Positions 28,097-47,040 are shown, numbered from the stretch's first letter. The stretch is 64,000 nucleotides of DNA from a virus (IMGVR_UViG_3300045988_183866); one strand, 5' to 3'. Numbers and translations: made by a program. The notes: generated by a model from the sequence alone, not told the origin.

Positions 28097-28130
28097 TTGA
28101 CTATTTATGCTTTTGGTGGTATAATATAAG
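28097..28130 (+). promoter_or_regulatory. Sigma-A type promoter with extended -10 (TTGACT-N14-TtGGTATAATATA), family 1 copy
   Basis: One of 6 near-identical copies of the TGTGGTATAATATA family. Confidence 0.65.
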
Positions 28131-28193
28131 CATAGTGCATGAAGCTTGTTTATGCACATCAAACAAACACACATGAAAAAGGAGAAGTTACTC

Positions 28194-28853
28194 ATGCAGA
28201 AGGTTAACAAGAGTTCTGTAAAGAAGGGTGCTGCGCTGTGTCTCGCTATGGCAATGGCCTGCACTGCATTTGTTGGTTGTGGCAAGAAGGATGATGCTGC
28301 CAGTGCAAGCGGCGCGACCAGTGAGTCCGCAGTTGAGGTTCTGGATAACAGCAAGCTGACTGAGATGCCCGATGGTGTTTCTCTGAGTGAGGACCAGATG
28401 AAGACCACCATGAACGCTTATGCCGCTTATATGACCGAGGCTCTGGCAAGCGATGGCTATACCGTCACCGTTCGCTATGACGAGGATGGCAGCGTTCATT
28501 TCGACGGTACCAAGACCGCTGATGACGGTTCTACTGTTGAGGTTCCTGACCTGTCCAAGTTCGACAATCTGAGCGCCGCGTTCGCATATCTGTACAACTG
28601 TGGTCAGGCTGATGCCGAGGGCAATCTGCTGGTGGCTACCTCCGTGCCTGCTGAGGAAGCGGCCGCATCCGAGGCTGAGAGCACTGCTGAATCTGAAGCT
28701 GCTGACAGTGAGGCTTCTGACAGCGAGGCTGAAAGCGCCGAGACTGATGGCGATGCCGCCGAATCCACTGAGGAGGCTTCCTCTGAGGATACTGCCGAGG
28801 CTGATTCTGCTGCTGAGTCCGAGGCCCCTGCTGACGAAACCGCAGTAGGCTAA
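28194..28853 (+). CDS. Lipoprotein with an acidic low-complexity C-terminal tail
   Basis: The RBS aaaaggaga precedes the ATG at 28194. The signal MQKVNKSSVKKGAALCLAMAMACTAFVGC carries a lipobox, and the C-terminus is a run of AESEAADSEASDSEAE repeats. Confidence 0.7.
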   Translation: MQKVNKSSVKKGAALCLAMAMACTAFVGCGKKDDAASASGATSESAVEVLDNSKLTEMPDGVSLSEDQMKTTMNAYAAYMTEALASDGYTVTVRYDEDGSVHFDGTKTADDGSTVEVPDLSKFDNLSAAFAYLYNCGQADAEGNLLVATSVPAEEAAASEAESTAESEAADSEASDSEAESAETDGDAAESTEEASSEDTAEADSAAESEAPADETAVG

Positions 28854-29004
28854 AAGACGCCTTGTGAGGCTGGCACATAAACTCGATTATTTTCTCAAAG
28901 TGTGATGCAGGATGTATAGACCTGCGGTTGGCGAGCAACGATAAAACCAGTCATCAGGAAAGCAGAACAGTGTTTAGGCACTGAATGTGGACCTCAAATC
29001 TTCA

Positions 29005-29040
29005 GATAGCCGCTCAGAAATGGGTGGCTATCTTTTTTTG
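29005..29040 (+). terminator. Rho-independent terminator
   Basis: Hairpin agatagccgctc-agaaat-gggtggctatct followed by T7. Confidence 0.8.
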
Positions 29041-29051
29041 TATTATACAAG

Positions 29052-29083
29052 TTGACCATTAAGGCAAAATGTGGTATAATATA
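29052..29083 (+). promoter_or_regulatory. Promoter TTGACC-N12-TGTGGTATAATATA, family 1 copy
   Basis: Conserved extended -10 element 13 nt upstream of the RBS gaggagg. Confidence 0.65.
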
Positions 29084-29096
29084 GAAAAGAGGAGGA

Positions 29097-29657
29097 ATGA
29101 AAATGCCGATTATTCTTTATTTAGGATTGACTTTACATCTTTGTACGAAGGGGCTTGGCTTCTTACACTTCATTGCTAATCTGCTGACTACCGTAACACT
29201 TCTTTTTATTTTTGTTTGTGTTATGAAAATGTCCTATAAGGCATATAAGAAGGGAGCTTCTCCGCTCATTTTCGCCTATGGTACCTATGGCGTGTATCCG
29301 CTGGTATACGGTGTAGGCTCTATCATTCAGTGTGTTCCGTCTTGGCTTTGGGTATGGTATTTTATGAACCATGTTGAGTTGGGAACTGGATTTACAATGT
29401 TCCAGTTCGATTCCATTGCTTACACTCTTGCATTGTCTGCTTATTGCTGGTTCTTCTACAAGAAACTGGCAAAAGCGTTTGATAAGGATGAAGCATTTGC
29501 CAAGAAGCTGTTTTTTGCCTATCCGTTAGCATTAAAGGAACTTGCGTTTGGCGATAGTGAATATGTACTCAAATGTCGTTGTGAGCCCACACCTAAGTAC
29601 ATTCCGAAAGAGGAACGAGTAAACACGACTGTCAACGAAGACGTCGATGAAGATTGA
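29097..29657 (+). CDS. Hypothetical polytopic membrane protein
   Basis: Several hydrophobic helices, for example LLTTVTLLFIFVCV and YGVYPLVYGVGSIIQCVPSWLWVWYF. The RBS gaggagg is present. Confidence 0.6.
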   Translation: MKMPIILYLGLTLHLCTKGLGFLHFIANLLTTVTLLFIFVCVMKMSYKAYKKGASPLIFAYGTYGVYPLVYGVGSIIQCVPSWLWVWYFMNHVELGTGFTMFQFDSIAYTLALSAYCWFFYKKLAKAFDKDEAFAKKLFFAYPLALKELAFGDSEYVLKCRCEPTPKYIPKEERVNTTVNEDVDED

Positions 29658-29671
29658 TATGTGATGGGGAT

Positions 29672-29704
29672 GCCGAGCGGTGATAAGCCGCTCGGCTTTT
29701 TTCT
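29672..29704 (+). terminator. Rho-independent terminator
   Basis: Hairpin gccgagcgg-tgataa-gccgctcggc followed by T6. Confidence 0.8.
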
Positions 29705-29733
29705 TTGCTATTTGCTGCAAAGTAGATACAATA
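29704..29733 (+). promoter_or_regulatory. Promoter of the conserved-spacer family (copy b): tTTGCT-aTTTGCTGCAAAGTAGA-TACAAT
   Basis: Conserved motif TTGCTGCAAAGTAGATACAAT about 65 nt upstream of the lipoprotein gene at 29798. Confidence 0.5.
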
Positions 29734-29797
29734 AAAGGAGAATTCGAAAGGAGGCGGCGTACAGGCAGACAAGCTGCTAAGACGCCAAAAAAAAGCT

Positions 29798-30877: not shown

Positions 30878-30928
30878 CAACACAAAAGAGCAGAAGGCGA
30901 GTGAGAAGTATCTTGCTCGTCTTTTTGA

Positions 30929-30960
30929 TTGATTCGTTTGCTTATTTGTGGTATAATATA
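30929..30960 (+). promoter_or_regulatory. Promoter TTGATT-N16-TGTGGTATAATATA, family 1 copy
   Basis: Conserved extended -10 family, upstream of the small Cys-rich protein and flotillin operon. Confidence 0.6.
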
Positions 30961-30995
30961 ATATATCGATTGGAAAGACAGGGGGAATTCCATTT

Positions 30996-31226
30996 ATGAC
31001 ATCGAACAGCAATACTGGAAGTGCGAGCGAACACGACATTTTTAGAACCTGTTATCAATGCCCACATCGCAAAGCTGGATGTCATTCCGTATGCGAAGGC
31101 TATTCGGCTCGTGTTGCCAAACAGCAGGAGATATATAAAATGCGTTTGGCACAATGTGATGAATATGCATTCAAGAAAGAGGTCGCCAGCAAAGTGTCAA
31201 AGTATTGCAAATCCCATTGCAGATAA
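30996..31226 (+). CDS. Small Cys-rich protein, probably zinc-binding (76 aa)
   Basis: The RBS aggggga precedes the ATG. The sequence contains CYQCPHRKAGCHSVCEGY...CDEY...CKSHC. Confidence 0.5.
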   Translation: MTSNSNTGSASEHDIFRTCYQCPHRKAGCHSVCEGYSARVAKQQEIYKMRLAQCDEYAFKKEVASKVSKYCKSHCR

Positions 31227-31241
31227 GAAAAGGAGTATACC

Positions 31242-32777
31242 ATGTTTTTAGGAATCGTCATTGTCGTATTGTTTGTTTTGTTCGCATTCACATGCTACAA
31301 AAAAGCGCCTCCCACAGCAGCCATCGTTGTGACTGGATTTGGCTTGAAAAAGCCCAAGGTCGTTTGTGGAAAGGGTACATTCGTCATACCTGTGCTGCAG
31401 CGTGCAGATAAGCTGAATATGCGTCTTCTGAAAATTGATGTCAAAACCCCTGAGACGGGTGTCAAGACAAAAGAAGGTGTATCGCTCTGGATTGATTCTG
31501 TTGTAACGATTCAGGTATACAGCGATAATTCTACTGTTCTCGACTCTGAGGTTCAGGCATCTGGTGCAAAGGATGTCAAGGAATATATTACGGGTCGTCA
31601 GCAGTCGGCTATTTCGAACTTCCTTGGCATGGACGAAAAAGGCATCAATGACAAAGTAAATGATGTCTTGCAAGGCAACCTGCGCGAAATCGTTTCGGAT
31701 ATGACGGTTGACCAGATTCTCACAAATCGTAAACAAATGGCGCTGTCAGTAATCGAAAATGCCCGTCCTGACCTTGCAAAGATGGGCCTTGAAGTTGTAA
31801 CCTTCAATGTGCAGGATGTAAAAGACGCCGTCGATGCGCAGGGTCACAATCACGGTGTCATTGAGGCTATTGGTATTGAGCAGGAAGAAGCCGTTAAGAA
31901 ACGTGCAGAGATTGCTCGTGCCGAAGCCGCTCGTGATATTGCTCGCGCAAAGGCTGACGCTGAAATGGCAGCCAATGAAAAGGAAGTTGAAGCCCAGACT
32001 GCTATTGCACAGCGCAACAATGAATTGCAGCTGGCAAAGGCCAAATTGAAGGCCGAGGCTGACAAGGCTGCTGCTGATGCCAACGCTGCAGGACAGATTC
32101 AGACAAATCTTCGCGCCAAGGAAATCAAGGAAGCCGAAGCTGATGCGGAAATTGCAAAGCAGAAGAAGATGGTCGACCTTGCTGCACAGGAAGCCGAGGT
32201 GCAGAAGAGAAAACTGGATGCAGAGGTTCGCAAAGCTGCGGATGCCGAATTGTATAAACGCCAAAAAGAAGCAGAAGCAAAAAAATACGAAGCCGAACGC
32301 GCTGCTGAGGCTCAGAAATTTGCAAAGCAGCAGGAAGCCGAAGGTATTGCCCTTGTAGGTAAGGCAGAAGCTGAGGCTATCCGTCAGAAGGGTATTGCTG
32401 AAGCCGAAGCTATGAAGCAAAAGGCGGAAGCTTACAAGCAGTACAACGATGCCGCTGTCGCTGAAATGCTTATCAAGGTCCTGCCTGATATTGCTAAGAA
32501 TGTGGCTCAGCCCTTGTCCGCAATCGATAAGGTATCTATCATCGGCGGCGATGCATCTGGCGTGTCCGGCGTGTCTGGGAATGTCCCCGTGCTGATGGCA
32601 CAGACTATGCAGACTGTCAAGGAAGCTACCGGTATTGATATGGCCGATATCGTTCGTGCGAACAGTATCAATGCTAAGACCGACCGCAATATCAACATTC
32701 ACGGTTTGCCTGCAATCGAGAAGGCTGATGACAATGCACACATCGAACCTGACGAAAGCGCAAGCGATATAAAATAA
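31242..32777 (+). CDS. floT: Flotillin-like SPFH/band-7 domain protein (FloT/YuaG-like)
   Basis: It has an N-terminal TM helix and an SPFH-like region. A long Ala/Glu/Lys-rich coiled coil follows (AEIARAEAARDIARAKADAEMAANEKEVEAQTAIAQR...), typical of flotillin repeats. Confidence 0.75.
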   Translation: MFLGIVIVVLFVLFAFTCYKKAPPTAAIVVTGFGLKKPKVVCGKGTFVIPVLQRADKLNMRLLKIDVKTPETGVKTKEGVSLWIDSVVTIQVYSDNSTVLDSEVQASGAKDVKEYITGRQQSAISNFLGMDEKGINDKVNDVLQGNLREIVSDMTVDQILTNRKQMALSVIENARPDLAKMGLEVVTFNVQDVKDAVDAQGHNHGVIEAIGIEQEEAVKKRAEIARAEAARDIARAKADAEMAANEKEVEAQTAIAQRNNELQLAKAKLKAEADKAAADANAAGQIQTNLRAKEIKEAEADAEIAKQKKMVDLAAQEAEVQKRKLDAEVRKAADAELYKRQKEAEAKKYEAERAAEAQKFAKQQEAEGIALVGKAEAEAIRQKGIAEAEAMKQKAEAYKQYNDAAVAEMLIKVLPDIAKNVAQPLSAIDKVSIIGGDASGVSGVSGNVPVLMAQTMQTVKEATGIDMADIVRANSINAKTDRNINIHGLPAIEKADDNAHIEPDESASDIK

Positions 32778-32802
32778 TTTGCTCAAAAAAATATAACTTC
32801 AG

Positions 32803-32842: not shown

Positions 32843-32845
32843 TCG

Positions 32846-32877
32846 TTGACTACCTTGTTTTAATGTGGTATAATATA
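32846..32877 (+). promoter_or_regulatory. Promoter TTGACT-N12-TGTGGTATAATATA, family 1 copy
   Basis: Conserved extended -10 family. Confidence 0.65.
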
Positions 32878-33038: not shown

Positions 33039-33758
33039 ATGGTAGAAAAACGTTATGTAGCAAAGAAAAGAATTCCGGAGTATTGCCCTTTCGGGTCAGT
33101 TATGTCCCTGAAAGTAGAAAGTGAAAACGATGCGCCTGCATGTTTTGGCCGTGTCGTTGGCTATCAGTACGAGGGTTCTGACGAAGTCGTTTCAACGATT
33201 GAGGGCGACAATCTGAAAGCCAAGGGCGAGAGAATTATTGACCGTCTTATGTACGACGGCTATCTCGTCAAACATCAGACTGTCAAGAAGATTGACAATC
33301 TCGGCACCGTCAACGTTACACAGTACGGAATCATGTACGAGGCAGAGAGTGCAGCGCAGCACAAGGGAACTCCTACGCACGGAATTCCGTCACCGACAGC
33401 GGGACAGTTCATCTGTACCTTTGAACTTCTGATGGTTACGGAAATCAACGGAGAGCTTTACGAGCGGTACATCACCATCCGTAAGAAAACGCCTCCGGTA
33501 TTCCGGTTCACTACAACCGATTTCTTCTGCAACATGGGTAGTTATATTACCACGATGCTGTGCAGAGGAGAGAGTGGATTCAAAATGCTGGATACCGATG
33601 ACAATCCGAATCGCTGCTCTGCTCAGTTCTATGATACCTTTGGCGAGAAGAAGAACATCATCTTCAATAGCACCAAAGACCTGCTTGCTACCATTGTTTC
33701 TGTAAGGCTTGTTGATGTAAAGCCATTCGAGGTTGCTGAAAGCAGCATCGCAGGATAA
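33039..33758 (+). CDS. Hypothetical protein (239 aa)
   Basis: The RBS gggggac precedes the ATG, and the ORF has coding periodicity. No family was recognised. Confidence 0.5.
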   Translation: MVEKRYVAKKRIPEYCPFGSVMSLKVESENDAPACFGRVVGYQYEGSDEVVSTIEGDNLKAKGERIIDRLMYDGYLVKHQTVKKIDNLGTVNVTQYGIMYEAESAAQHKGTPTHGIPSPTAGQFICTFELLMVTEINGELYERYITIRKKTPPVFRFTTTDFFCNMGSYITTMLCRGESGFKMLDTDDNPNRCSAQFYDTFGEKKNIIFNSTKDLLATIVSVRLVDVKPFEVAESSIAG

Positions 33759-33777
33759 GCAGAAACGGTGGTAGACC

Positions 33778-34416
33778 ATGAGCAAAAAGAAATTCTACGT
33801 ACTTCAAAGCGACGCAGATACTCTCCCCGCAGAGATGAAGGGAATTTATACAGGAGATGAGTTCCCTGAATATAAGGGTGCGGAAACAATCACCTTTAAC
33901 AACAAGACTTACATCAACGGATTGGATTATCAAACCGTTAAGTCCGGAAAACATGTCCGAATCGAAGAATGCCCTATTTGCAATAGGCTTTCTATCATAT
34001 ATGCGCGGGGTGTATGCAAAGCCTGTGCGCAACGAACATTGTACAGGCACAGAAGAGATAAGACCGGCGATGTCATGACAGAACGGAATATCCGCGAAGC
34101 AAACATTGCCTTCCGTAAGGGTTGGCCCGTGAATATCATTTGCGGGCTGGACGGGGTCAGGTATAACATCGACGATTATCCTTATTCGAAAAAAGAAGAA
34201 GCGAAAATTGTCGATGCTATTCTTTCAATCAGAGATACGACTGTTACGGATTATCTCTTGAAGCATTACAAAGACGGCATCAAGTATTCTGATATGGCTT
34301 ATGCCGAAAACAAAAGTAAGCAGAATGCACATGGCTTTGGCAGAAGACGCCTTGCATATGTGCGGAACATTCTCAGAACCAAGGGGCTTTTAAAAGGCCC
34401 AAAAACCACGAAATAA
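33778..34416 (+). CDS. Hypothetical protein with a zinc-ribbon (CPICN...CKAC)
   Basis: CxxC-N13-CxxC motif, with no other recognisable domain. Confidence 0.5.
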   Translation: MSKKKFYVLQSDADTLPAEMKGIYTGDEFPEYKGAETITFNNKTYINGLDYQTVKSGKHVRIEECPICNRLSIIYARGVCKACAQRTLYRHRRDKTGDVMTERNIREANIAFRKGWPVNIICGLDGVRYNIDDYPYSKKEEAKIVDAILSIRDTTVTDYLLKHYKDGIKYSDMAYAENKSKQNAHGFGRRRLAYVRNILRTKGLLKGPKTTK

Positions 34417-34445
34417 ACATCATCAATCGTAAGGGGAAGATTGCC

Positions 34446-34964
34446 ATGAACAGCGTAGAAACGAAAACAACGGATAAGACTTATGCAGTCAAGAATACTC
34501 ACAAACAGGAATGGGAGACGCCTCAGGGGCTTTTCGATGACCTGAACAAGGAATATGGTTTCACTCTGGATGCGGCTGCATCGGACAAAAATCATAAATG
34601 CAAGAAATATTACACGGAGCGTGTCGATGGTCTCTTGCAGGACTGGAAAGGTGAAACAGTATTTTGTAATCCCCCGACAGGGCACAAGTCCTTTAAGTTG
34701 TGGGTGCGCAAGGCGTACGAGGAGTCAAGGAAAAGGAATACCACGGTCGTCATGCTTTTACCCGTTTCTACGGACTCTGACTGGTTCCAGAGATACATTT
34801 ATGGACAGCAGGGAGTAAGGGTAAAGTTTCTGCCTGCCAGAATCAAGATGACGAACCCTTATCTGTTCATTGACTCTGAGAATCGGAAAGAGACTATCGG
34901 CAGTCGTCGTCCTTCTATGATTGTTGAGTTCACAAACAAAAAGCGTAAGTTCTCGATTATTTAA
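34446..34964 (+). CDS. Phage-type DNA N6-adenine methyltransferase (Dam, PF05869-like)
   Basis: EWETPQGLFDDLNKEYGFTLDAAASDKNHKCKKYYTERVDGLLQDWKGETVFCNPPTGH...VVMLLPVSTDSDWFQRYIY..VKFLPARIKM matches the phage Dam family pattern (WxTPxxLF..L...FxLDxAA..N.....YYT...DGL...W...vF.NPPY). Here the motif reads NPPT rather than NPPY. Confidence 0.75.
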   Translation: MNSVETKTTDKTYAVKNTHKQEWETPQGLFDDLNKEYGFTLDAAASDKNHKCKKYYTERVDGLLQDWKGETVFCNPPTGHKSFKLWVRKAYEESRKRNTTVVMLLPVSTDSDWFQRYIYGQQGVRVKFLPARIKMTNPYLFIDSENRKETIGSRRPSMIVEFTNKKRKFSII

Positions 34965-35048
34965 GCGAGGCAAACAGGCCATACCGCCATTTCTTATAGG
35001 AAATAGAGCGCATGGCCTTTTTGCCGTATTTAGAGTGAGGGTTAAATC

Positions 35049-35330
35049 ATGTACGGAAAATTTGGCTGTGGCGTAACACATGAACAGGCTGTAGAGGAAT
35101 TCAACGGAGGAAAAACGGTCGTTCAGATTGCCAGAAAGTATGGTATCACAACAAAGGAAGTAAAGACCATTCTTCGGGAAGGCGAAATCGAAAAGAAGAA
35201 AGAAGAGAAGAAAACCGTCAAAGCCCAACACGGTGTTATTTGCAGTCGGGCGCACTGCGAGTGGGGCAATAACACATACGGCGTCTGTTGCCTTCCTTGT
35301 TGTATGAAAAATAAAGTCCATCGAACTTAA
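35049..35330 (+). CDS. Small protein with a possible HTH and a Cys-rich C-terminus
   Basis: TVVQIARKYGITTKEVKTIL is HTH-like. The C-terminus is CSRAHCEWGNNTYGVCCLPCC. Confidence 0.4.
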   Translation: MYGKFGCGVTHEQAVEEFNGGKTVVQIARKYGITTKEVKTILREGEIEKKKEEKKTVKAQHGVICSRAHCEWGNNTYGVCCLPCCMKNKVHRT

Positions 35331-35354
35331 ACTGCCGGTGAAGGAGTTGATAAC

Positions 35355-37025
35355 TTGGTTACACAGAATGTGATTAACGGCTTTGTGATTCCTGATGATA
35401 TTGCTGAAATCAGGGATTTCCCGCGAGAATTTAAAATCAGCACCGTTGATTTCGTGTATCAGCGAATTGCTTTTCTAATCGAGTGCTTTCCTCTGAGGAA
35501 GGAAATCATTGAACTGGCTCAGTCAGACAATGATTGCCAGAAGATGAAAAGGAAAATCCTTAAAGGCGAAAATGACCTTACCATCATTCTTGCAGGGAAT
35601 GATGGATTGACAGATACGGCACTTGACATCCTTTCGTATCTGGTCATCAAAGCCGATAAGACGAATCCCACGCTGTACCAGATTGTAAAGAAAATCGACG
35701 GCGAATCGGATAAGCTATTCGAAAAGATGTTCCACGAGAATGATTTGAGTAAGAGAACCATTACGCGTGGATTTAAGGCTGCATTGGACATTTTTCAGGC
35801 AGCATCCGTAAAGGACGGAGACAGTATCAGGAAAATCGTCAAAGATTTCGATAACTCCTTCTCTGACAGCGGCACGGAAGCGATGATGGCCTTTGTGAAA
35901 GAAGCAGTGTCCGATATCTGGGATGTCGCTACACTCGGCGATATGATTTATGCGCTGCGATACGACAGTGACTGTAACAGCTGGGATATGCCGGAAATGG
36001 CGGATTTCTTTACGCAAGCCGTCAAGAATGGCGTCGCTCCTGCACCTCCGTTAAATGTGTCCAGTCGTCCGCGTATCGATATGTGTATGAGTTCTTTCCG
36101 GATTTCCACCAGTATTGGTGTCAATCATCATTCGCTTTATAAGTTCCCTATCACGGAGAAAATGAAAGAGCGAATTTGCGCAATTATGGCAATGAGCTGC
36201 ACAGTAGACCCGAGAAAGATGGTACATAGAGCGTCTATCGACAGAGGAATTCGTGATGCTTATATTGCTCTTGTCTGGCAATATGTTGTTTCTTCTTTTG
36301 GAGAAAAGCAGCAAAAGAATGCAATTCTCGAAAAGAGCACTACAATCTATAACCAGAGAAAACTGAGAAAACGCGAACTCGAAAACAAAAAATACGAGGA
36401 GCAGCTAAAGCAAAAGGCTTCCGAAGTCAAAAAGGAAGTGGCTGAGGCAAGCACAAACGCCAAACTGGAAAAGGTCAAGAAAGAACTTTACGATTTCAAG
36501 GCCACATCCATGAAACGAGAAACGGCTTTGCGCAAAAAGAACGATGATGCCGAGAGTAGAATCCATGAACTGGAAAAGCTGTTGGCGAACGCAGAGCGAA
36601 AGCTCATTCAGCTTCGGCCAGAAACTTCCGAGTTTGATGACTTTGATGATTCCGATGCAGGTATCTGTGAACAGGAAACAGAAGTCATAGACTATCATAA
36701 AGAGCTGAATCAGATGGCAAAGAACAAGAAAATTGTTTTCTGCGGTGGACAGCAGAACTTTGTCAACATGCTTCGTAATGCACAGCCGGACATCTCGTAT
36801 GTTGACCAGTGTAATCTGGCTACCTGCGATGCGCTTATCGCAAACAGTGACATTGTTATTTTCCGTGTTACACAGATGAGTCATTCTTTGTACGGAAAGG
36901 CGAAGCAGATTTGTAAGGCTCGTGGTATTCGATTCGAGCATCTGCCAAATGTTACATCTATTCCTCTTACAGAGGAGTTAATCTATACACTCATCACGAA
37001 AAAGGAGGCAACCGGTAATGAGTAA
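35355..37025 (+). CDS. Hypothetical protein (556 aa) with a central coiled coil
   Basis: A TTG start sits 8 nt after the RBS aaggag. The coiled-coil segment is KLRKRELENKKYEEQLKQKASEVKKEVAEAS... Confidence 0.5.
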   Translation: MVTQNVINGFVIPDDIAEIRDFPREFKISTVDFVYQRIAFLIECFPLRKEIIELAQSDNDCQKMKRKILKGENDLTIILAGNDGLTDTALDILSYLVIKADKTNPTLYQIVKKIDGESDKLFEKMFHENDLSKRTITRGFKAALDIFQAASVKDGDSIRKIVKDFDNSFSDSGTEAMMAFVKEAVSDIWDVATLGDMIYALRYDSDCNSWDMPEMADFFTQAVKNGVAPAPPLNVSSRPRIDMCMSSFRISTSIGVNHHSLYKFPITEKMKERICAIMAMSCTVDPRKMVHRASIDRGIRDAYIALVWQYVVSSFGEKQQKNAILEKSTTIYNQRKLRKRELENKKYEEQLKQKASEVKKEVAEASTNAKLEKVKKELYDFKATSMKRETALRKKNDDAESRIHELEKLLANAERKLIQLRPETSEFDDFDDSDAGICEQETEVIDYHKELNQMAKNKKIVFCGGQQNFVNMLRNAQPDISYVDQCNLATCDALIANSDIVIFRVTQMSHSLYGKAKQICKARGIRFEHLPNVTSIPLTEELIYTLITKKEATGNE

Positions 37026-38594: not shown

Positions 38595-38832
38595 AAATAA
38601 CTCCTTTCTTTTTTGTTGTCTATGCGAACAAAAGTTCGTTGCTGGACAACTGCATGTGTGGTATCATGATAACAACAGGCAGTTGTATATTAGTTGTTCT
38701 TTCCGTTTTAACAACCGCTATACATCAGTCAGTGAGTCCCATTGTTATCTGGTAGACACTTATATTTTATCACGCAGAGTATCCCAAAATTCGTACTTTC
38801 AACTATATTGCGACTCGTTCGGAGGATTTTTT

Positions 38833-39792
38833 ATGGAGATTATTGGAGTAGATACCGGAAACAAAGCAATGAAGACGCCTGGCTGTGAGCCGTTTCCCAC
38901 TGGTCTTGTTCGTCACGGTACGACTGAACCAGCTATCAAGGGAGAGACGATGTGCTACATGGGGAAGTATTATTCCCTCAATGACAGCCGCACGCCTTAT
39001 CAGCAGGATAAGACGAAGGATGATACTTACTTTTTGCTGACGCTGATTGCCGTAGCAAAGAACCTTATAAAGAAGTATCCCAATCAGAAATTCTACAAAT
39101 ACGATGTATGCCTCGCGATGGGCTTGCCCCCGCAGCATATGTCCCTGAAAGCGAAGTATGATGAGTATTTCGGCAAAAGCGGGAAACTCATCAATTTCAT
39201 GTACAAAGATATCCCGTTTGAGATTACTGTCAAGCATGTCTTTGTCTATCCTCAGGGCTTTTCTATTACGGCAGCAGGCGAGATTCAGAAGGAAATCAAG
39301 CGCTATCCTCGTTCTTATGTTGTAGACATCGGCGGGTATACCACGGATGTGATTCGTTTCTCTGGTCGTGGCAACACTTATGCTCCGGACCTTTCTTTCT
39401 GCGAAAGCTATGACCGTGGAGTCATTGAACTCCTGAGCACTGTCGAGAGCGAGCTGCGCGTCCATTGTTCCTTGTCGGTCGATGACTACATGGCTGAGGC
39501 AATCCTTGCAGGAAACAACAACATGCTGGTCGATGAAAACGCCGTGAAGATTGCCAAGGAAACCGCAGACAATTATGCAACAGCATTGATTCGCACGATT
39601 TCCGAAAAAATCAAGGACGATTTCAAAACATCCTATTTCATCTTTATGGGCGGTGGTTCTGCTATGATGCGCGAAAGCATCGAGCGAGCCATTGACACCA
39701 AGAACCTTTTCTTCTTGACGGATGTAACCGCGAATGCAAAAGGATATGAAATCATGGCTCGTGCAAAGCTGACCATGAGCGGTGAAATTTAA
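38833..39792 (+). CDS. parM: Actin-like segregation ATPase (ParM/StbA/Alp family)
   Basis: The RBS ggagg sits 8 nt before the ATG at 38833. MEIIGVDTGNKAMK is phosphate-1, VVDIGGYTTDVI is phosphate-2 and IFMGGGSAM is the adenosine motif. Length is ~320 aa. The upstream in-frame extension from 38533 is rejected. Confidence 0.75.
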   Translation: MEIIGVDTGNKAMKTPGCEPFPTGLVRHGTTEPAIKGETMCYMGKYYSLNDSRTPYQQDKTKDDTYFLLTLIAVAKNLIKKYPNQKFYKYDVCLAMGLPPQHMSLKAKYDEYFGKSGKLINFMYKDIPFEITVKHVFVYPQGFSITAAGEIQKEIKRYPRSYVVDIGGYTTDVIRFSGRGNTYAPDLSFCESYDRGVIELLSTVESELRVHCSLSVDDYMAEAILAGNNNMLVDENAVKIAKETADNYATALIRTISEKIKDDFKTSYFIFMGGGSAMMRESIERAIDTKNLFFLTDVTANAKGYEIMARAKLTMSGEI

Positions 39793-39825
39793 GAGCACCG
39801 GTTTTGAAAGCGTGGTGAGCACTGA

Positions 39826-40290
39826 ATGCCGCGTGGACGTCCCAAAAAGAATGAAGCAGAAAAAGAGACCGTTGGCACGACGGTACGAACCACACTTGTT
39901 TTTGATTTAAGCAAAGACAATCATGTACTTGTATATGATTATCTGAATAGTTTGCAACGCGGCGGAAAAACCGATGCGGTTGTAAATGCTATAATCGACA
40001 AGGCTACAAAACAACATGAGATGCAAGAAGCGCAGTCCATCTTAAAAGAGGAATTGCAAAACACAATAGCAGAAGAAATCAGAAGCTGTATTCCTCAGAT
40101 TGTAGATGCAGTGACAAGCAGCATTCAGAAAAACGGGATTGCGGTAGCTGCGCCAGCTTCAAATTACTCCCCCCAAAACATTACAGACACACAAACCATC
40201 AACACAACTCCCAAAACAGAAGAAGCACCGCCTCCTATTTCAGAAGAAGCGATGCTTGCATTACAGTTAGCCGATATGTTTGGCGGCTAA
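39826..40290 (+). CDS. Small basic DNA-binding protein, candidate ParR-like adaptor
   Basis: The N-terminus MPRGRPKKNEAEKETVGTTVRTTLVFDL is AT-hook/RHH-like. It lies immediately downstream of parM. Confidence 0.4.
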   Translation: MPRGRPKKNEAEKETVGTTVRTTLVFDLSKDNHVLVYDYLNSLQRGGKTDAVVNAIIDKATKQHEMQEAQSILKEELQNTIAEEIRSCIPQIVDAVTSSIQKNGIAVAAPASNYSPQNITDTQTINTTPKTEEAPPPISEEAMLALQLADMFGG

Positions 40291-40953
40291 TCATTTGTCG
40301 TGATTGGCTTTCTCTATTTTATCGAGACGCTTAATCTTATTCTCAGCGTTATCTAATCTGTTGCGGTACTGAACTTCATTGGGTAACGCTTCACCATCAT
40401 TACCATAGAAGTATTTCTTTGCCTTTGAAAGTATTTGAGAACTTGTTTTTCTTAAATTCGGGTCAAGGTATTCGGCACCGACCAATGTTCTTGAAATATC
40501 ATCCATTGCATCGGGGCCAAGAGAAATCAGAAAAGAAGCCAGTTCCAAAGAGTATAGGTCTGCCACTGTTTGCGGAGCAGACACGGAATCAGGAATTGAC
40601 AAATTATAGCCAAACAGATAGCAAAACTGAACCACATAAGGAAATACTACAGTTCCAAAATTTGCATTTGGTTGCATGAATGTCTTGTTGTAAGCGGCAG
40701 TGCTGCTGTATCCCAACATTGCTGCAAATTCATCAGCGGTAAACCCATAACGGAGTCTCGTCCGTTCCATCAGAACATTCAGATATTTCACGGTATTCTC
40801 CGTGTCAACAAAGCAAGATTTTGCCTGTTCCATAAAGGTATCTACAATTTTTGCTCGTTCTTGCTTGGAAGCAGTGTTCATTTTGCCTCCCATCAAGAAA
40901 GCATTGAAGATATTCTCTACCGATTCGTGGTTGTTGTTGATATTGTTACTCAT
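40291..40953 (-). CDS. Putative HTH transcriptional regulator (221 aa)
   Basis: The RBS aggaggg precedes an ATG (plus-strand cat at 40951-40953). YGFTADEFAAMLGYSSTAAYNKTF is HTH-like. It is divergent from the gene at 41108. Confidence 0.45.
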   Translation of the reverse strand: MSNNINNNHESVENIFNAFLMGGKMNTASKQERAKIVDTFMEQAKSCFVDTENTVKYLNVLMERTRLRYGFTADEFAAMLGYSSTAAYNKTFMQPNANFGTVVFPYVVQFCYLFGYNLSIPDSVSAPQTVADLYSLELASFLISLGPDAMDDISRTLVGAEYLDPNLRKTSSQILSKAKKYFYGNDGEALPNEVQYRNRLDNAENKIKRLDKIEKANHDK

Positions 40954-41107
40954 AATTTCCCTCCTGCTTGGTTTAACAGACAAGTTTATATAATTACCGA
41001 AAACAACAATTTTTGTAACCGGTAATATAAATTATACCTTTACTGCACTTATATAATACCACAAAAACGTGAAAAAGTCAATTACTGTACATTAGGGGGA
41101 GCGATTT

Positions 41108-41563
41108 ATGGCCGCTATTATTTATCTTGATATCGTCAAAACGCCGGAACTGAATGGGGAGGTGTGCGTTCACAGTTTTGTCGTAAATCCTTCCGCCAAG
41201 TCGGATAGACAGAAGGATACTTATTTTATGGCTACTCCAATTGGTTATACAAGGCTGAAATTGGCAGAGCTCTGCCGCATTATCGAGAACATCGGTTTAC
41301 CAACAGGGTCTCAGATTGTCGTATTCAGCAGCGATAATGCGATTGCGCGTACTGGTGCTTCTTTTGGCGTAGAGGACGGCGATACTGAGCCCAGTCATAA
41401 CAAAGACCTTTGGGCGCGACTTAAATATGCCTGTAGCGCAAAGAAGTACAAGGTCATGTTCCATTATAGTGGCCTTTTGTCCGAAACCGTACATGATAAC
41501 ACGCATATTCATATTGAAACGAATCTTGCGAAAGGAGGGAAGGCAAATTGTCCGAAGCATTGA
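41108..41563 (+). CDS. Ribonuclease H-like protein (RNase HI family-like)
   Basis: AAIIYLDIV...YTRLKLAELCRIIENIGLPTGSQIVVFSSDNAIA...DLWARLKYACSAKKYKVMFHYSGLL..NTHIHIETNLA resembles the RNase HI layout (iYtDGs...ELlA.i.aL.......v.l.sDS.y...lW.rL......v.w.wvkGH.g...N...D.LA). Confidence 0.5.
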   Translation: MAAIIYLDIVKTPELNGEVCVHSFVVNPSAKSDRQKDTYFMATPIGYTRLKLAELCRIIENIGLPTGSQIVVFSSDNAIARTGASFGVEDGDTEPSHNKDLWARLKYACSAKKYKVMFHYSGLLSETVHDNTHIHIETNLAKGGKANCPKH

Positions 41564-42609
41564 ATAAAGCCCAAGAACAGCAGCTTTACGCATTGCTCGA
41601 TGCTATTATGCAGGACAACATTGTTCTGCGTAGAAGTTTTGGCGGAGACATCCCCAATTCTTATGTGCTGACAAAGTGCGTAAACCGTGTTGTGGAAGAG
41701 CGGCCGGAACTGAAAGAAGCGGCTGTTCTGATGATATTGTATCCGGCACTCAAATGGATGATGCAGGCACAAGACCTTGATGTCATGATGCAGAACTGTG
41801 AAAACGTTCACGACGATGAGATGTGCGATGTCGAAGCCATTTCCCGTCTGCGCCGTATTCAAAGCTGGCTGGCTCCGAACATTGAGGAAGAGTCTTTGCA
41901 TTTCAGGAAACGCAAAGAATACTTCGAAAGTTGTCAGATGCTTCTTGACGCCATTGAGGAGTCGCGGTTAGAACTCTTGTACGAAGTCGATTATTGTTCC
42001 AGCATGCGGGAGGTGTTTGATTGCTTTTTGAATCCCGCCGTTCTTCCGAAGAATGGACGCATCAAAATCATGAAGTATTGCGAGCGGTGCATTGAATCCG
42101 TTTACAATACAGCAGGTAGTGTTATCAAGGAATATTATAAAATCCTGATGACAAGCAGTGATGTGGACGGGGTAGAAGAAGCAAGCCTTTATCATAATGT
42201 TCCACTGCTCCTTACGGAATACACGCGTATTCTGTATCGTGCCTCACGGTCAAAGGACCCCGCCATGAAGCTGCTTGGGTCTTCTTCGTACGAAGATTTG
42301 AGTAAAATCAAAGTTTCTGATAAAAACAGAAGCGATGCCTATCTCATTGTGGAGTATGTGAAACTCATACGAGGGGCTATCGAAATCATGAAACAGTTCC
42401 CGCTTGGTCAACGTTATTATGACGTTATCCTTGCAATGATTGAGGGGAAAAAGTACAACTGGACAGATGAGCAGATTGCCGGGCATCTTGGTGTTACGGC
42501 AGGAACATTCTCTACCAGAAAAGGACATGCCATTGGTGTGTTCGGATGCTTATTGTTTGGCTGTGACGCGAACGGGCTGCTGAATTGCCTGATTGACGCT
42601 CGCGTTTAA
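41548..42609 (+). CDS. Putative transcription factor with a sigma-70 region-4-like C-terminal HTH
   Basis: C-terminal KKYNWTDEQIAGHLGVTAGTFSTRKGHAIGVF resembles sigma region 4 (L.deEIAe.lg.s.gtV.sr..rA). Confidence 0.4.
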   Translation: MSEALNKAQEQQLYALLDAIMQDNIVLRRSFGGDIPNSYVLTKCVNRVVEERPELKEAAVLMILYPALKWMMQAQDLDVMMQNCENVHDDEMCDVEAISRLRRIQSWLAPNIEEESLHFRKRKEYFESCQMLLDAIEESRLELLYEVDYCSSMREVFDCFLNPAVLPKNGRIKIMKYCERCIESVYNTAGSVIKEYYKILMTSSDVDGVEEASLYHNVPLLLTEYTRILYRASRSKDPAMKLLGSSSYEDLSKIKVSDKNRSDAYLIVEYVKLIRGAIEIMKQFPLGQRYYDVILAMIEGKKYNWTDEQIAGHLGVTAGTFSTRKGHAIGVFGCLLFGCDANGLLNCLIDARV

Positions 42610-42625
42610 ATAAGAGGTACAGATT

Positions 42626-43120
42626 ATGGCTCGGAATCATTGTACTTCTGAAAACAGCAACCATACAGAAACCCAAAAACAAAGTACAACTCCTAAAACC
42701 ATAACGTACGAACGCAAATGCAAGGAATGCGGCAGAATTTTTTATTCTACCGCCAAAAACACTCAATATTGCAAGTCCTGCAGTACCCTAAGAAGAGAAA
42801 CTCAGGTAAAGAAGAACACAGAAACGAGGCGAATGAAGATAGGACAGACAAGAAATAAAATCACTACGGGACATGCTTACAATCTGGACGGGAAAAGGGT
42901 TGTAATCCCGAATGATTATATGCTGAATGCTGTCAGCATATTCGCCAGTTATCTCGGTGTTTCATACGGCAAATTCGATTCATGGAAAGAGAAAAATATG
43001 GACGAATACCTTGAATGGGAACGTCAGATGCTCATTGATTATGTTGAGCAGAGTAAAAAGTGCAAGATGTGCGGTCCGAGAGCTCCTTCGCGCAAGGTGT
43101 TCGAAAAGTACAAGAGATAA
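42626..43120 (+). CDS. Zinc-ribbon protein (CKECG..CKSC; CKMCG)
   Basis: CxxC pairs at the N- and C-termini. Confidence 0.45.
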   Translation: MARNHCTSENSNHTETQKQSTTPKTITYERKCKECGRIFYSTAKNTQYCKSCSTLRRETQVKKNTETRRMKIGQTRNKITTGHAYNLDGKRVVIPNDYMLNAVSIFASYLGVSYGKFDSWKEKNMDEYLEWERQMLIDYVEQSKKCKMCGPRAPSRKVFEKYKR

Positions 43121-43134
43121 GGGGTGTGATAAAC

Positions 43135-44121
43135 ATGAATGAGCATTATGTTATCGGTCAGGTACGCGCCATGTATGAAGGCAAGGAACGTGTTTTCGAT
43201 GTCTATGATGATGGTACGGTAATTCTGCCTAACGGGGAACAGATGACGCTTGACGATTCCGTTGTGGAAACGCTTCGCGCCGAATACAACAACGCAAAGT
43301 CTGCCAACAACAATGGCGCAAAAGGGCTGAATGTGAATGTCGGCCATAGAGAGACCAAAGCTTACGAAGTGCTTACAAAGACAAGCGATACACTGGATGA
43401 AGCAAACCAGACGCTTAAAGATACTAAGCATGCCAGTAAGGAAATCCTAGAACAGGCACAAATCATCAAAAACAATAACAAGCGTAATATCGGTATCGCA
43501 ATGTTCATTGTTGCCGTTGTCGCCATCGCTATTGGCTTCTTCGTATACACAAACTGGGTCCAAATCAGCGGGCAGCTTACCGGAGAATATAAAGTTGCTG
43601 TCGTAAATGTGGATATTCCTTCTGGGGATACCATCGAGGATTCAGAACTCAGCTATAAGACTTTGAGTGTCAACGAATACGAATCCTTATGCGGTTCGCA
43701 TTTTGTAGATGGCGACGGGAAGATGCAGCAGGATACCCCCGTGTTCTTTGTGGATAGAACAGGTTCCATCGTAAACAAGTTTGCGACCTCTGATATGAAG
43801 GCCGGAGATATTGTTATGACGTCTTCTGTATCTGCACAAAAAGCGTCACAGGATATGTATGTGGTTGAGACCGAAGATAAGGATGGAAATCGTCAGAAGC
43901 AAACAATAGATGGCGCATTGCTTGCGGGGGATACGACCATTCAATATATCGCACGGGTAACTACTTCGTCTGGGGAGTCTTACGATGTTGTTTTGTCCAG
44001 TATTAAACTACGCGACAAGACAATCGAGGACGTTTTGAATGAGCAGGGTGCAAGTATTTTACAGTCTGCCAGTACGACAAACAGCGCAGATAAAGATTCT
44101 AACGTAGAAGGCGGTGAATAA
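43135..44121 (+). CDS. Hypothetical single-pass membrane protein
   Basis: The RBS aaggggtg precedes the ATG at 43135. TM helix IGIAMFIVAVVAIAIGFFVY. Confidence 0.5.
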   Translation: MNEHYVIGQVRAMYEGKERVFDVYDDGTVILPNGEQMTLDDSVVETLRAEYNNAKSANNNGAKGLNVNVGHRETKAYEVLTKTSDTLDEANQTLKDTKHASKEILEQAQIIKNNNKRNIGIAMFIVAVVAIAIGFFVYTNWVQISGQLTGEYKVAVVNVDIPSGDTIEDSELSYKTLSVNEYESLCGSHFVDGDGKMQQDTPVFFVDRTGSIVNKFATSDMKAGDIVMTSSVSAQKASQDMYVVETEDKDGNRQKQTIDGALLAGDTTIQYIARVTTSSGESYDVVLSSIKLRDKTIEDVLNEQGASILQSASTTNSADKDSNVEGGE

Positions 44122-44797
44122 AATGTCTAAGATTTATCATCCGGATTGCAAATCCCTTATCACATCTATGTATGTGAAGAATGGGCTTATCGCTATTCTG
44201 TTCTTGATTGCTTCTATTTTCGGTGTTGTTGTAATGCAGGAGTGGAAGATTCTTCTCATCGGCTTGATGTGCGCCGCTTATTTTATTTTTCAAATTTATG
44301 AGATTCATAATGATGAAAAAAATGAACGGTATAAGACTGTTAAGGGAATTGTTGTATCCGATGAGTCCAGCAAAAATATGATTCGCCAGCAGATTTCAAC
44401 CTATCGAATCATCCCTGTCAATGAGGATGGAGAGTTTATCGACAAAAACGGAAAATACGATTTTTTCCTCAGCGTCAACGAATCAAAGAAAAACGTTAAA
44501 AACTCTTTCTTCGTTGGTGCTATGTATGATTTTATTTTTAAATCAAATGAGGATGGCGTAACTGCGTTTAATGACAGAAATCTCGTAACCTGCAGTCGTG
44601 TAACGACAGCCGTCAAAAACGATGATACTATCGTCCCTGCTGATACGCAGAAATCAGTACCTTCCATGAGCCCGTTGGAAGCGTACGATAAAGTCAAACA
44701 AGAAGCTGAAAAAGAAGTTATTGAACAAAAAAAGAAACACACAAAAGAAAATCTTGTCTTTTTGGACGGATTTGGCGAAGGCGGTGATTCAAAGTGA
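44114..44797 (+). CDS. Hypothetical membrane protein
   Basis: Two N-terminal TM helices. It overlaps the upstream stop. Confidence 0.45.
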
Positions 44798-46218
44798 ATA
44801 GCTTTGTATCATTCGTCTTGCTGATGCTCGTTCCGTATATTTTTTCTTTAAGCATTATCTCCATAAATGTTAAGTACCTTACATTGCTTATTATTGCTGC
44901 GTATTGCATGGTAAACACATGGTACTCTGAAAACTCCTTTACTTTTATGGGAAGGCGTGTTCATAAGCGCGGTATATTGGTGCGCGGTATTGTGCAGAAC
45001 GTATGGCGCGGTGAAGATGATACCTATGTAGTAGATATTGCCGCAAAAGATTCTGACGGCATCGAAACGATTATTGTTCCTGCGCGGTCTGTTGGAAATG
45101 AATTCTTACGTGCATTCTTGGCATCACAGAAGAATGGTGAGTATTTTGATATTGCTGTAATTCAGTACACAGACAGCTTAGGAGAAAAGACTTACGAGAT
45201 ACCTTGTGATTGGGCAACGAACGGTTTGTCAAGTGGTTTGTCTTATCACCCGCAGAAGGGGAGAGACAGTTTTATGCAAAACCGAAAAGACCAAGGAGAT
45301 AAAACAGTATTTATCATGCGCGGTATCTGCGAGCTGCTGATTCCGGTGTCGTTTATCTGTTTTATTTTTGATGCAGGACTTGCTATTGTTTTACTGGTTG
45401 TTTCTCTGTGCGGTATTGTATGCTTTGTGCCGAGCCGCAAGTTGTCAAACCACAAATTTTGTGGTATAATATTAGTAGAAAGAACGATTGCTACTATTGA
45501 GAAGTGGTGGAATTCGAAATCTGACATGAATGTGCCTGCTGAGATAAAGGAAAGCGAAAATACCGCATCAGCAGAAAAAGAAAAGAAAGAAAAAACCGAG
45601 GCGATTCGCCGTGCAGTACAGAAGGCGGAGTCCGAAGAAAAGAAGTCTGAGGCCGTTGTAGCAATCGACGGTCTTTTGCAGAAGGGAACTGCTAAGATTC
45701 CAGTAAAGGAAGAATCTGTTGTGCAAGAAGAACAAGGTTCAAACGCACAAGAGTCTTCTGCTTTGGAATCAAAACAATCCGACAAAGATGATTTATCAAA
45801 AAACAAAAAGGTTCAGGAACCCGTCACAGAAACAAACAAGGATAAGGCTTCAGCGGATGCGGTTGCTGATTCAAACACAGCAAGTGCAAAAACAAGCGAT
45901 GGTGGTTCCAATGAACCTGTAAAGTCAAAAAGAACTTCCAAAAAACGCCAAACAACCAAGAAAAGAGAAAAGAAACCAGCGTCCTCAAATTCTCAGTTGA
46001 CATTTGATTTGCTTTCAGATGTTGCAAAAGAGGATGCACAAATCACCAATCCATCGGATAAGGTTCAGAATGAAAAAGACGATGATTCCTCTGACGAAAT
46101 CGAAAAAGTGGAGGATACCGACATCGAGGTCATTGAACCGCCGAAAGAACATGTAAATCGATTCGGGGACTCTTTGATAAAGAAGAAACCCGATGATAAC
46201 ATCGTGGCAGAATATTGA
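44794..46218 (+). CDS. Membrane protein with a long K/E/S-rich low-complexity C-terminal half. It contains an internal consensus promoter.
   Basis: The N-terminal half has TM helices. Nt 45442-45474 encode [13 protein letters not shown] but also form a perfect family-1 promoter. Confidence 0.45.
45442..45474 (+). promoter_or_regulatory. Family-1 promoter (TTGTCA-aaCCACAAATTTTGTGG-TATAATAT) located inside the CDS 44794..46218
   Basis: Best match to the -35/-10 consensus in the window. The spacer contains a perfect inverted repeat, CCACAAA/TTTGTGG. Confidence 0.5.
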
Positions 46219-46249
46219 TTCTGTCACTCCTTCCAAAGGAGGAGCCTGT

Positions 46250-46903
46250 ATGCCGAAGAAGTCTAATGCAGAAAAAGTATGGTCCAATAAACTCCCTAAG
46301 ATACTCAAACCTGTTGGCTGTTCGTTTTCTGATGATGAATGGAACGACTTTTCCAGCTTTTTTCCTGTAAACGGATGGGATGCGTATCCTCCTGAACCCG
46401 ATAAGACCGGTGAAATCATAAAAAAGCTATTAGAGAACAAGGCTAATAAGTACAAGAATATTGTTTCTCAAAATAAATGCCTTTTGTGCGGTGAAGTCAC
46501 AGATGGTCTCTCTTCTCACTACCGCAAAGATTTAGGCTTATGCGTTGCCTGCTGCCAAAGCGTGTTCTATGTGCGCCGCTGTAAGCGCAACCGCCTTGTA
46601 ATAGACCCGGAAAACGGAAAAGAAATAAAGGAATGGGATAGAGATAAGACGCATGCAAAATGCGCCGTCTGCGGGAATGAAGGCATTTCTAATGTCGCGC
46701 TTTGCTTATGCAAGAAATGTTCTTCTCGCGCATCGAATCAACGTATCAGAAAGACCGCAGCAGATATCAAACCGGAAGAACTCGGCGTAAAGTATGTTAC
46801 GAAACGCTATCAGGATTATGCTAAAGAGATGTTCCCCGATAGTCTGAAAAACACTTCAGAAATAAAACTCGTACGACAAGATATGGGGTACGGTATTCGA
46901 TAA
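46250..46903 (+). CDS. Cys-rich zinc-finger protein (217 aa)
   Basis: The RBS aaaggagg precedes the ATG at 46250. Multiple CxxC motifs (CLLCGE, CVACC, CAVCGN, CLCKKC). Confidence 0.5.
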   Translation: MPKKSNAEKVWSNKLPKILKPVGCSFSDDEWNDFSSFFPVNGWDAYPPEPDKTGEIIKKLLENKANKYKNIVSQNKCLLCGEVTDGLSSHYRKDLGLCVACCQSVFYVRRCKRNRLVIDPENGKEIKEWDRDKTHAKCAVCGNEGISNVALCLCKKCSSRASNQRIRKTAADIKPEELGVKYVTKRYQDYAKEMFPDSLKNTSEIKLVRQDMGYGIR

Positions 46904-46921
46904 GGCACTTCTGATATTTCA

Positions 46922-46952
46922 CATGCCCTGCTTCGGCGGGGCATTTTTTTAT
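46922..46952 (+). terminator. Rho-independent terminator
   Basis: Hairpin atgccctgc-ttcg-gcggggcat followed by T7. Confidence 0.7.
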
Positions 46953-46964
46953 TCGCAATTTGTA

Positions 46965-46997
46965 TTGACCACATTATATTTATGTGGTATAATATAA
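46965..46997 (+). promoter_or_regulatory. Promoter TTGACC-ACATtatatttATGTGG-TATAATATA, family 1 copy
   Basis: Conserved extended -10 family. The spacer carries a CCACAT..ATGTGG inverted repeat. Confidence 0.65.
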
Positions 46998-47040
46998 ATA
47001 TTCCAAGCAAAACATTGCTTTTTAGTCAAAGGAGAAATTT

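Follow-up and report, generated by a model that had tools for sequence, protein, structure and literature searches.

A near-invariant extended -10 promoter family on a human-gut Hodor megaplasmid probably consists of housekeeping sigma-A promoters

The host-takeover module of phage SPO1 is an array of strong early promoters read by the host polymerase, and in RK2/IncP plasmids the KorA and KorB operators lie on consensus promoters. In Firmicutes the -10 element is extended by a TRTG motif, discriminators in Terrabacteria are AT- or AG-rich, and transcription start sites centre 7 bp after the -10 element (PMC12641261); the TRTGn motif stabilises the open complex according to Voskuil and Chambliss (2002), as cited in PMC6570832. 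Hodor conjugative megaplasmids, whose only description is a February 2026 preprint (PMC12934698), average 357 kb, carry no terminase and fall into two deeply diverged groups, G1 with 47.1% GC and G2 with 44.6% GC. More than a third of their proteins are closest to Bacillota homologues, and their genes encode adjacent giant surface proteins (>7300 aa and ~2642 aa), a SecY/SecG/SecE cluster, a trigger factor with sortase B, and ParM (PMC12934698). The word "promoter" is absent from the main text of that preprint. Here, we analyzed a stretch of 64,000 nucleotides (IMGVR_UViG_3300045988_183866; hereafter the window), in which a sequence-only reading had noticed six copies of a 14-nt promoter block between 28.1 and 47.0 kb. 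The family with the TGTGGTATAATATA core is named F1, and a second promoter family in the window F2. The F1 sites are quite probably near-optimal housekeeping sigma-A (sigma-70 type) promoters that would open insulated transcription units across a Hodor megaplasmid.

Both strands of the window were scanned for TGTGGTATAATATA at up to two mismatches, with 100 shuffles as a control. Seven matches were obtained against 0.32 expected, a number reached by none of the shuffles (0/100); the F1 motif family is real and statistically solid. Exact copies start at 29070, 30947, 32864 and 46983, and copies with one mismatch at 28115 (GGTGG...) and 45460 (...ATATT), which bears out the earlier description of six copies sharing an almost invariant block, each being within one mismatch of it. 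That list was incomplete, as it left out a seventh, one-mismatch copy on the minus strand at 41050-41063 (TGTGGTATTATATA). The -35 hexamers of the seven sites (P1 to P7, Table 1) read TTGACT, TTGACC, TTGATT or TTGTCA, each with 4-5 of 6 consensus matches. TTGnnn is found upstream of every copy, and because the distance from hexamer to hexamer is always 17 nt (7/7), the 12 to 16 nt that had been allowed between the -35 element and the block is really a fixed 12 nt. A consensus promoter scan of 27.5-47.4 kb ranked exactly these seven sites at the top, all with 10-11 of 12 hexamer matches, a TG ahead of the -10 element and a -10 element of TATAAT or TATTAT. All strong F1 copies within the window fall between 28.1 and 47.0 kb.

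The seven sites agree with the published definition of TRTG, which places it at positions -17 to -14 and leaves a single base between it and the -10 element (PMC12641261, PMC6570832): TGTG-G-TATAAT was present at six of the seven, with GGTG at P1. When the ten F1 sites of this Hodor group were aligned, high information was found only at the -35 hexamer, at [T]GTGG-TATAAT-ATA and, as a third informative place, at a purine four bases after the -10 element. Accordingly with the sigma-A architecture, TTGACn would be the -35 element, followed by a 17-bp spacer and TATAAT as the -10 element; TGTG would represent the Gram-positive "-16" TRTG extension, the G that follows it a free position, and ATA an AT-rich discriminator of the kind typical of Terrabacteria. 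Transcription would probably start ~7 nt past TATAAT, at a purine. The expected outcome is strong and probably largely activator-independent transcription, and among the alternatives offered by the sequence-only reading, very strong constitutive expression is the sole one that fits the evidence, with strength predicted from sequence. We infer the promoter activity, start sites, strength and constitutive behavior of the F1 sites in the same manner.

The arrangement around the sites follows a repeated layout of gene, terminator, F1 promoter, short leader and gene. All seven F1 sites are co-oriented with the downstream gene, and six are intergenic with a Shine-Dalgarno-led start codon 16-164 nt downstream, P5 being the exception. 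Strong terminators made of a hairpin and a T-run lie 5-20 nt ahead of five of the seven (P1-P4 and P6), with folding z-scores of -4 to -7. With a terminator behind and a ribosome-binding site and start codon ahead, each of these five sites is therefore predicted to open an insulated transcription unit. The units opened by the family would include an accessory SecY/SecG operon, a flotillin operon, a Dam-methylase operon and a helix-turn-helix gene. No strong terminator was found between P6 and 50454, and P6 most likely drives three small genes, SecY and the SecG-like gene as far as the terminator there, which agrees with the report in the Hodor preprint that SecY, SecG and SecE are co-transcribed (PMC12934698).

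The replicon was recognized by its genes. Open reading frames (ORFs) of the window encode giant surface proteins of 6514 and 2668 aa, and further genes encode SecY, a SecG-like protein, a trigger-factor-like protein, a ParM/Alp7A-like actin, a Dam-type methyltransferase, flotillin and an XRE regulator; this content fits the preprint, with sortase B and SecE not confirmed by hidden Markov model search. Near-identical contigs came from human gut samples and measured 346-354 kb among the longest read, IMG/VR holds the megaplasmid as a 345,980-bp "viral" contig, and an identical 76-aa XRE protein is encoded by contigs from 8,719 blocks of the assembly collection. When 28-48 kb was compared by megablast with PLSDB plasmids and INPHARED phages, no match was obtained, and a 556-aa protein of the window was absent from the GTDB species representatives searched; the homologue search with this protein gave at least 120 matches, and the 120 listed were all ~100% identical, with no distant relative among them. 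Judged by gene content, the window is part of a ~350-kb human-gut "Hodor" conjugative megaplasmid, and the "island" of the sequence-only reading is a stretch of plasmid, not a chromosomal island. The sister Hodor group was reached through a SecY search (SecY 90% identical, neighboring DNA 68-86% identical). Across 21 kb of homologous sequence, the two groups differed in GC content (43.7% for that of the window, 48.9% for its sister), and the window's group is probably G2 because it has the lower GC of the two.

The F1 motif extends well beyond the stretch in which it was noticed. Outside the window, the megaplasmid was read at sampled regions. One of these (L028, 279-287 kb of the same 345,980-bp contig) lies at least 127 kb from the window cluster, which maps to ~130-152 kb; it shows no similarity to the window and holds two exact copies of the 14-mer plus one copy with two mismatches, in each case TTGAC stands at the correct distance and a gene lies downstream, among them PARG-like, AAA-ATPase and further accessory genes. 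Both F1 and F2 are also present on a 143-kb IMG/VR contig, where four more F1 sites fall within 17.6 kb. The proposed restriction of the motif to one island thus fails on the same contig and again on other Hodor-like contigs. In IMG/VR, the 32-nt pattern TTGAC-N13-TGTGGTATAATATA matches at least 120 stretches, and of the loci listed for the bare 14-mer, 17 of 80 (~21%) recur in the 32-nt scan and therefore have TTGAC at precisely the -35 distance. Promoter arrays occur on unrelated phage contigs, with five copies (L083) or four exact copies and a near copy (L144).

Chromosomes carry the same promoter. Among GTDB species representatives, the 32-nt pattern matches at least 120 stretches, compared to ~4 expected by chance, and, judged by record title, 94 of the 120 listed belong to Bacillota, mostly gut Clostridia, with Ruminococcus and Oscillospiraceae dominating. 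In Clostridia assemblies it heads rplJ (ribosomal protein L10, twice), fba (class-II fructose-bisphosphate aldolase) and mraZ; further genes headed by the pattern are nrdR, rimP, hpf, ruvC and one for a thymidylate-kinase-like protein. The sequence-only reading had named equal frequency elsewhere, including in housekeeping genes, as what would refute an island-specific motif, and this outcome was obtained: the exact 32-nt promoter is widespread in unrelated phage contigs and precedes housekeeping genes in gut Clostridia. The F1 motif itself is a textbook, ordinary promoter type and defines neither an island nor a regulon. Together with TRTG, the exact match to gut Clostridia promoters independently supports a Bacillota host, probably among the Clostridia. 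Outside Bacillota, exact 32-nt matches in Poribacteria chromosomes (L244, L333 and L345) head what appear by eye to be IS200-type transposases, and these IS200-type elements seem to carry the consensus promoter along with them.

Comparison of the copies with each other and among strains points to what keeps them alike. The 40-nt flanks of the F1 copies are 28-30% identical, which is chance level, mean spacer identity is 4.15/12 against a shuffled expectation of 3.8, and a repeat finder bounded the shared unit at 32-37 nt; no homology was found beyond the promoter elements in this group's copies. Across 13-16 strains, 3 of 140 columns were polymorphic in the -35 hexamers and 14-mers, compared to 66 of 784 in spacers and flanks (Fisher p = 0.008), with the spacer being the most variable part among strains (11/84 columns). 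The P3 14-mer is invariant across 13 strains despite highly polymorphic flanks, and at P5 neither the -35 hexamer nor the 14-mer varies among 16 strains. In the sister group, the promoter ahead of the 28194-28853 orthologue retains TTGACT and TGTGGTATAAT but has a diverged spacer and a diverged downstream sequence, and an F1-type promoter also lies ahead of the Sec operon, analogous to P6. This pattern is the one expected of purifying selection on polymerase contacts and not of recent duplication, and the near-identity would have arisen by convergent purifying selection towards the RNA polymerase optimum; the suggestion of recent duplication does not hold, as spacers and flanks are unrelated between copies.

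CCACA...TGTGG inverted repeats had been noticed in two of the copies and are indeed present, as a perfect palindrome in the P5 spacer (CCACAAATTTTGTGG, 45450-45464) and as CCACAT...ATGTGG at P6 (46969-46987). CCACA is the reverse complement of the adjacent TGTGG. Two further features near 20 kb exist but had been misplaced by 7-9 nt: the repeat CTGTGGTAAAACCACAG lies at 20027-20043, not 20036-20052, and the degenerate promoter copy lies at 19901-19929 with N12, not at 19908-19940 with N14. The hairpin formed by the former is probably unrelated to promoters. Two known types of element were considered for the CCACA/TGTGG repeats and rejected. A single-strand (Frpo-like) promoter was ruled out as arms of 5-7 bp cannot rebuild a promoter. 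The CRP/FNR-like site is TGTGA-N6-TCACA, and both sequence and spacing differ from it.

Several observations weigh against plain selection on polymerase contacts as a full account. CCACA occurs in 3 of the 10 spacers of this Hodor group, for which the chance probability by composition is ~1e-4, and its rate in other promoters with the same 14-mer is 7/221 (3%; Fisher p = 0.006); this enrichment is real and is not explained by plain polymerase optimization. P5 lies inside a 474-aa ORF, called as a single product in 10 of 10 assemblies, without an obvious gene start just downstream. Furthermore, some F1 pairs share 8-9 of 12 spacer bases, the discriminator is ATA at 8 of 10 sites here (the rest being ATT and GTA), compared to AGG or AGA in the sister group, and three AGG-type promoters of the latter form a clearly paralogous cassette. 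The spacer bases shared in pairs and this sister cassette indicate that some copying occurs in Hodor plasmids, and the uniform discriminators and shared spacer bases may reflect either copying inside a lineage or tuning specific to it.

Could such copying explain the near-identity as a whole, if a promoter cassette had recently duplicated or had spread as a mobile or recombining module? We consider this decidedly unlikely. The site at 29052 and one in the distant sampled region (L028_6767) do share 9 of 12 spacer bases, and those at 32846 and 46965 have 8 of 12 in common, with 84% identity over 37 nt. Each lineage also has homogeneous discriminators, and in the other Hodor group three promoters form the obvious paralogous cassette of ~60 nt with a TATCCT...AGGATA repeat. 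Against these stand flank identity at chance, a mean spacer identity of 4.15/12 near the null of 3.8, and the lack of any repeat longer than ~37 nt, of terminal repeats and of target duplications. The presence of the same 14-mer in unrelated phages and chromosomes makes convergence a sufficient explanation, and P1 is old, not recent, because it is kept at an orthologous position across the groups. An element-specific program, in which a megaplasmid-encoded sigma factor or dedicated polymerase reads F1, is highly improbable. The element is large, fewer than half of its genes have been given a function, and the density of exact copies (at least 5 per ~72 kb examined) is far above that of chromosomes. 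Yet the motif is indistinguishable from the housekeeping consensus, and in Clostridia lacking the megaplasmid it heads genes for ribosomal and glycolytic proteins; a scan of 40 window proteins revealed no sigma-factor domain, and the word "sigma" is absent from the main text of the Hodor preprint (PMC12934698).

The sequence-only reading had also proposed a common regulator, in which case a plasmid-encoded repressor or activator (such as XRE, 38364-38594, or helix-turn-helix, 40291-40953) would bind TGTGG/CCACA half-sites overlapping the -16 motif and co-regulate the F1 units. The enrichment of CCACA in spacers (3/10) and the location of both regulators inside the cluster speak for it, and RK2-like plasmids pair consensus promoters with global repressors. 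We nevertheless regard it as very unlikely. CCACA is lacking from five of the seven window copies, and its gap to TGTGG is 5 or 9 nt in the two that have it and 2 nt in the L028 copy, which does not fit a fixed dimer site; the L028 repeat is lost (CCGCA) in a 92%-identical relative, and CCACA is missing from the positional analogue of P6 in the sister group. TGTGG itself is accounted for by TRTGn. The conserved positions are all known RNA polymerase contacts, nothing is conserved outside of them, and the spacer, which is the would-be operator site, is the most polymorphic segment; no conserved palindromic operator was found at a fixed position in F1 promoters. The promoter region of the XRE gene has a different palindrome, TATCATGATA, and P7 has a downstream repeat of its own, ATATTACCG...CGGTAAT. 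Housekeeping sigma-A promoters under purifying selection thus remain the preferred explanation for F1.

A better candidate for coordinated control than F1 appears to be F2, a homologous module of ~75-170 nt made up of a promoter, a conserved leader and an intrinsic terminator. Its promoter, TTGnnn-N-TTGCTGCAAAGT-NNN-TAnnAT, has a 16-nt spacer in which the box TTGCTGCAAAGT is invariant, and this box contains the palindrome TTGC-T-GCAA. The leader is conserved as GATAAATAAAA ... TTCAAAATCAA, 6 of the 12 stem pairs of the terminator have undergone compensatory changes, and genes downstream of the terminator start 25-35 nt later without a promoter of their own. No Rfam match was found for the module. 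F2 is a candidate for a conditional-termination (antitermination/attenuation) or small-RNA regulon. The earlier proposal of two regulons therefore stands in part, as there are two promoter classes and F2 looks regulated, with F1 defining neither a regulon nor an island. It is conceivable, if doubtful, that the two families are interleaved as a two-tier design, with F1 as an activator-independent layer for any Bacillota host and F2 as a regulated layer. Under such a design, the F1 discriminator would be tuned per lineage (ATA here, AGR in the sister group) to hosts or to initiating-nucleotide control, CCACA/TGTGG hairpins would modulate a subset of F1, and the F2 promoter-leader-terminator modules would respond to a plasmid-encoded repressor or antiterminator.

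Table 1. Positions of predicted promoters, terminators and associated elements (window coordinates unless a contig is named).
Feature	Position	Strand	Description
P1, F1 promoter	28097-28128	+	TTGACT-N12-GGTGGTATAATATA; heads 219-aa gene 28194-28853
P2, F1 promoter	29052-29083	+	TTGACC-N12-TGTGGTATAATATA; heads 186-aa gene 29097-29657, leader ~16 nt
P3, F1 promoter	30929-30960	+	TTGATT-N12-TGTGGTATAATATA; heads 76-aa gene and flotillin/Band_7 gene (30996-32777)
P4, F1 promoter	32846-32877	+	TTGACT-N12-TGTGGTATAATATA; heads long operon 33039-38367 including Dam-type methyltransferase
P7, F1 promoter	41050-41081	-	TTGACT-N12-TGTGGTATTATATA; heads 220-aa helix-turn-helix-like gene 40953-40291
P5, F1 promoter	45442-45473	+	TTGTCA-N12-TGTGGTATAATATT; in frame inside 474-aa ORF 44794-46218
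P6, F1 promoter	46965-46996	+	TTGACC-N12-TGTGGTATAATATA; heads 47041-50447 (three small genes, then SecY, SecG-like)
Weak F1-like promoter	38639-38667	+	TTGCTG-N12-TGTGGTATCAT; upstream of ParM/Alp7A-like gene 38833-39792
Degenerate F1-like promoter	19901-19929	+	TTGACT-N12-TGTGG-CATATT; upstream of 2668-aa surface protein gene
Intrinsic terminator	28057-28090	+	-24.8 kcal/mol, z = -7.0; ends 6 nt before P1 -35
Intrinsic terminator upstream of P2	29004-29033	+	-21.0 kcal/mol, z = -5.7
Terminator hairpin and T-run abutting P3 -35	30892-30925	+	-18.6 kcal/mol, z = -4.2
Terminator hairpin and T-run upstream of P4	32801-32838	+	-19.0 kcal/mol, z = -4.1
Intrinsic terminator upstream of P6	46923-46944	+	-16.5 kcal/mol, z = -5.1
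Hairpin CTGTGGT-AAA-ACCACAG (CTGTGGTAAAACCACAG)	20027-20043	+	-9.4 kcal/mol, z = -3.2; 5' leader of 2668-aa gene
F2 full module	54213-54376		
F2 full module	56885-57009		
F2 full module	59649-59757		
F2 full module	63858-63985		
F2 promoter only	19727-19760		
F2 promoter only	29705-29735		
F2 outside window	L186 3120-3245		
F2 outside window	L050		

Two weaker F1-like sites accompany the seven: the one at 38639-38667 is divergent from the XRE gene, and the degenerate one at 19901-19929 sits downstream of the F2 promoter at 19727. Short hairpins followed by T-runs occur within the leaders of P4 (32929-32948) and P6 (47006-47023) and may be attenuators. A 5' stem-loop as a common feature of F1 leaders was dropped, since folding surpassed the shuffled controls in just 3 of 7 cases. 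No known RNA element was detected when the window was scanned for Rfam families and tRNAs. At the end of the Sec operon, the trigger-factor-like gene starts ~20 nt after the strong terminator (50454-50505), which leaves no room for a promoter in between, and a weak promoter-like site (50422-50450) precedes the terminator hairpin; expression of this gene may depend on read-through or attenuation.

The region also varies between strains and groups. From the start of the Dam operon to the genes preceding SecY, the window spans 13.2 kb (34370-47581), compared to ~2.4 kb in the sister group (L229 6794-9156), so that, on nucleotide similarity only, the genes for the Dam methylase, the 556-aa and 449-aa proteins, XRE, the ParM-like protein and the helix-turn-helix protein, along with P5 and P7, fall into a group-specific segment. 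In four strains (L005, L008, L009 and L010), an IS605-family TnpB (OrfB) element of ~1.39 kb is inserted at window position 46899, at the stop codon of a 217/236-aa gene just upstream of the terminator and P6, leaving P6 intact. The paralogous cassette of the sister group, ~60 nt in length, carries TGTGGTATAATAGG promoters at L229 4626-4657, L229 9066-9097 and L405 5843-5874, two of which have a TATCCT-N5-7-AGGATA inverted repeat right after the -10 element that could be an operator or a 5' stem-loop.

In one strain (L011 2496-2801), a mini-CRISPR array of ~306 bp lies directly downstream of P1 in the same orientation, inserted between window positions 28150 and 28164 and absent from the window itself. 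It consists of a ~150-nt leader and three 34-nt repeats (GTTGCAACCCGCACGGGTTGCGTTAGATTGAAAT, type I-C-like), and its first "spacer" duplicates the native sequence of the insertion site. Similar three-repeat arrays with 34-35-nt spacers are found on another Hodor-like contig (L186 2399-2690 and 3293-3585).

Overall, this analysis provides a first map of predicted transcription units in part of a human-gut megaplasmid that is very prevalent but barely characterized, and genetic tools for gut Clostridia could use the 32-nt consensus as an off-the-shelf strong promoter. In architecture, F1 is the same as the sigma-A "-16 region" promoters of Bacillus subtilis and other Firmicutes (Voskuil and Chambliss 1998, 2002). 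In contrast to ordinary promoters of this class, F1 sites occur at an unusually high density, reach a near-perfect optimum at many sites of one plasmid, and are also uniform within a lineage in the three bases of the discriminator.

The early-promoter arrays of Bacillota phages (L083 and L144) are alike in presenting many near-identical copies with TGTGGTATAATATA, each heading a short unit, whereas the carrier of F1 is a conjugative megaplasmid without a terminase and not a phage (PMC12934698). The L083 array also shares an A-rich upstream element and a downstream TACAG, while the Hodor copies share polymerase contacts only; since homology in the phage arrays extends past the promoter contacts, these are true paralogous cassettes. 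With the KorA/KorB regulons of RK2/IncP, F1 has in common strong consensus promoters spread over a large conjugative plasmid with regulators nearby, but F1 has no conserved operator at a fixed position, and it is F2 that fits the RK2 model better.

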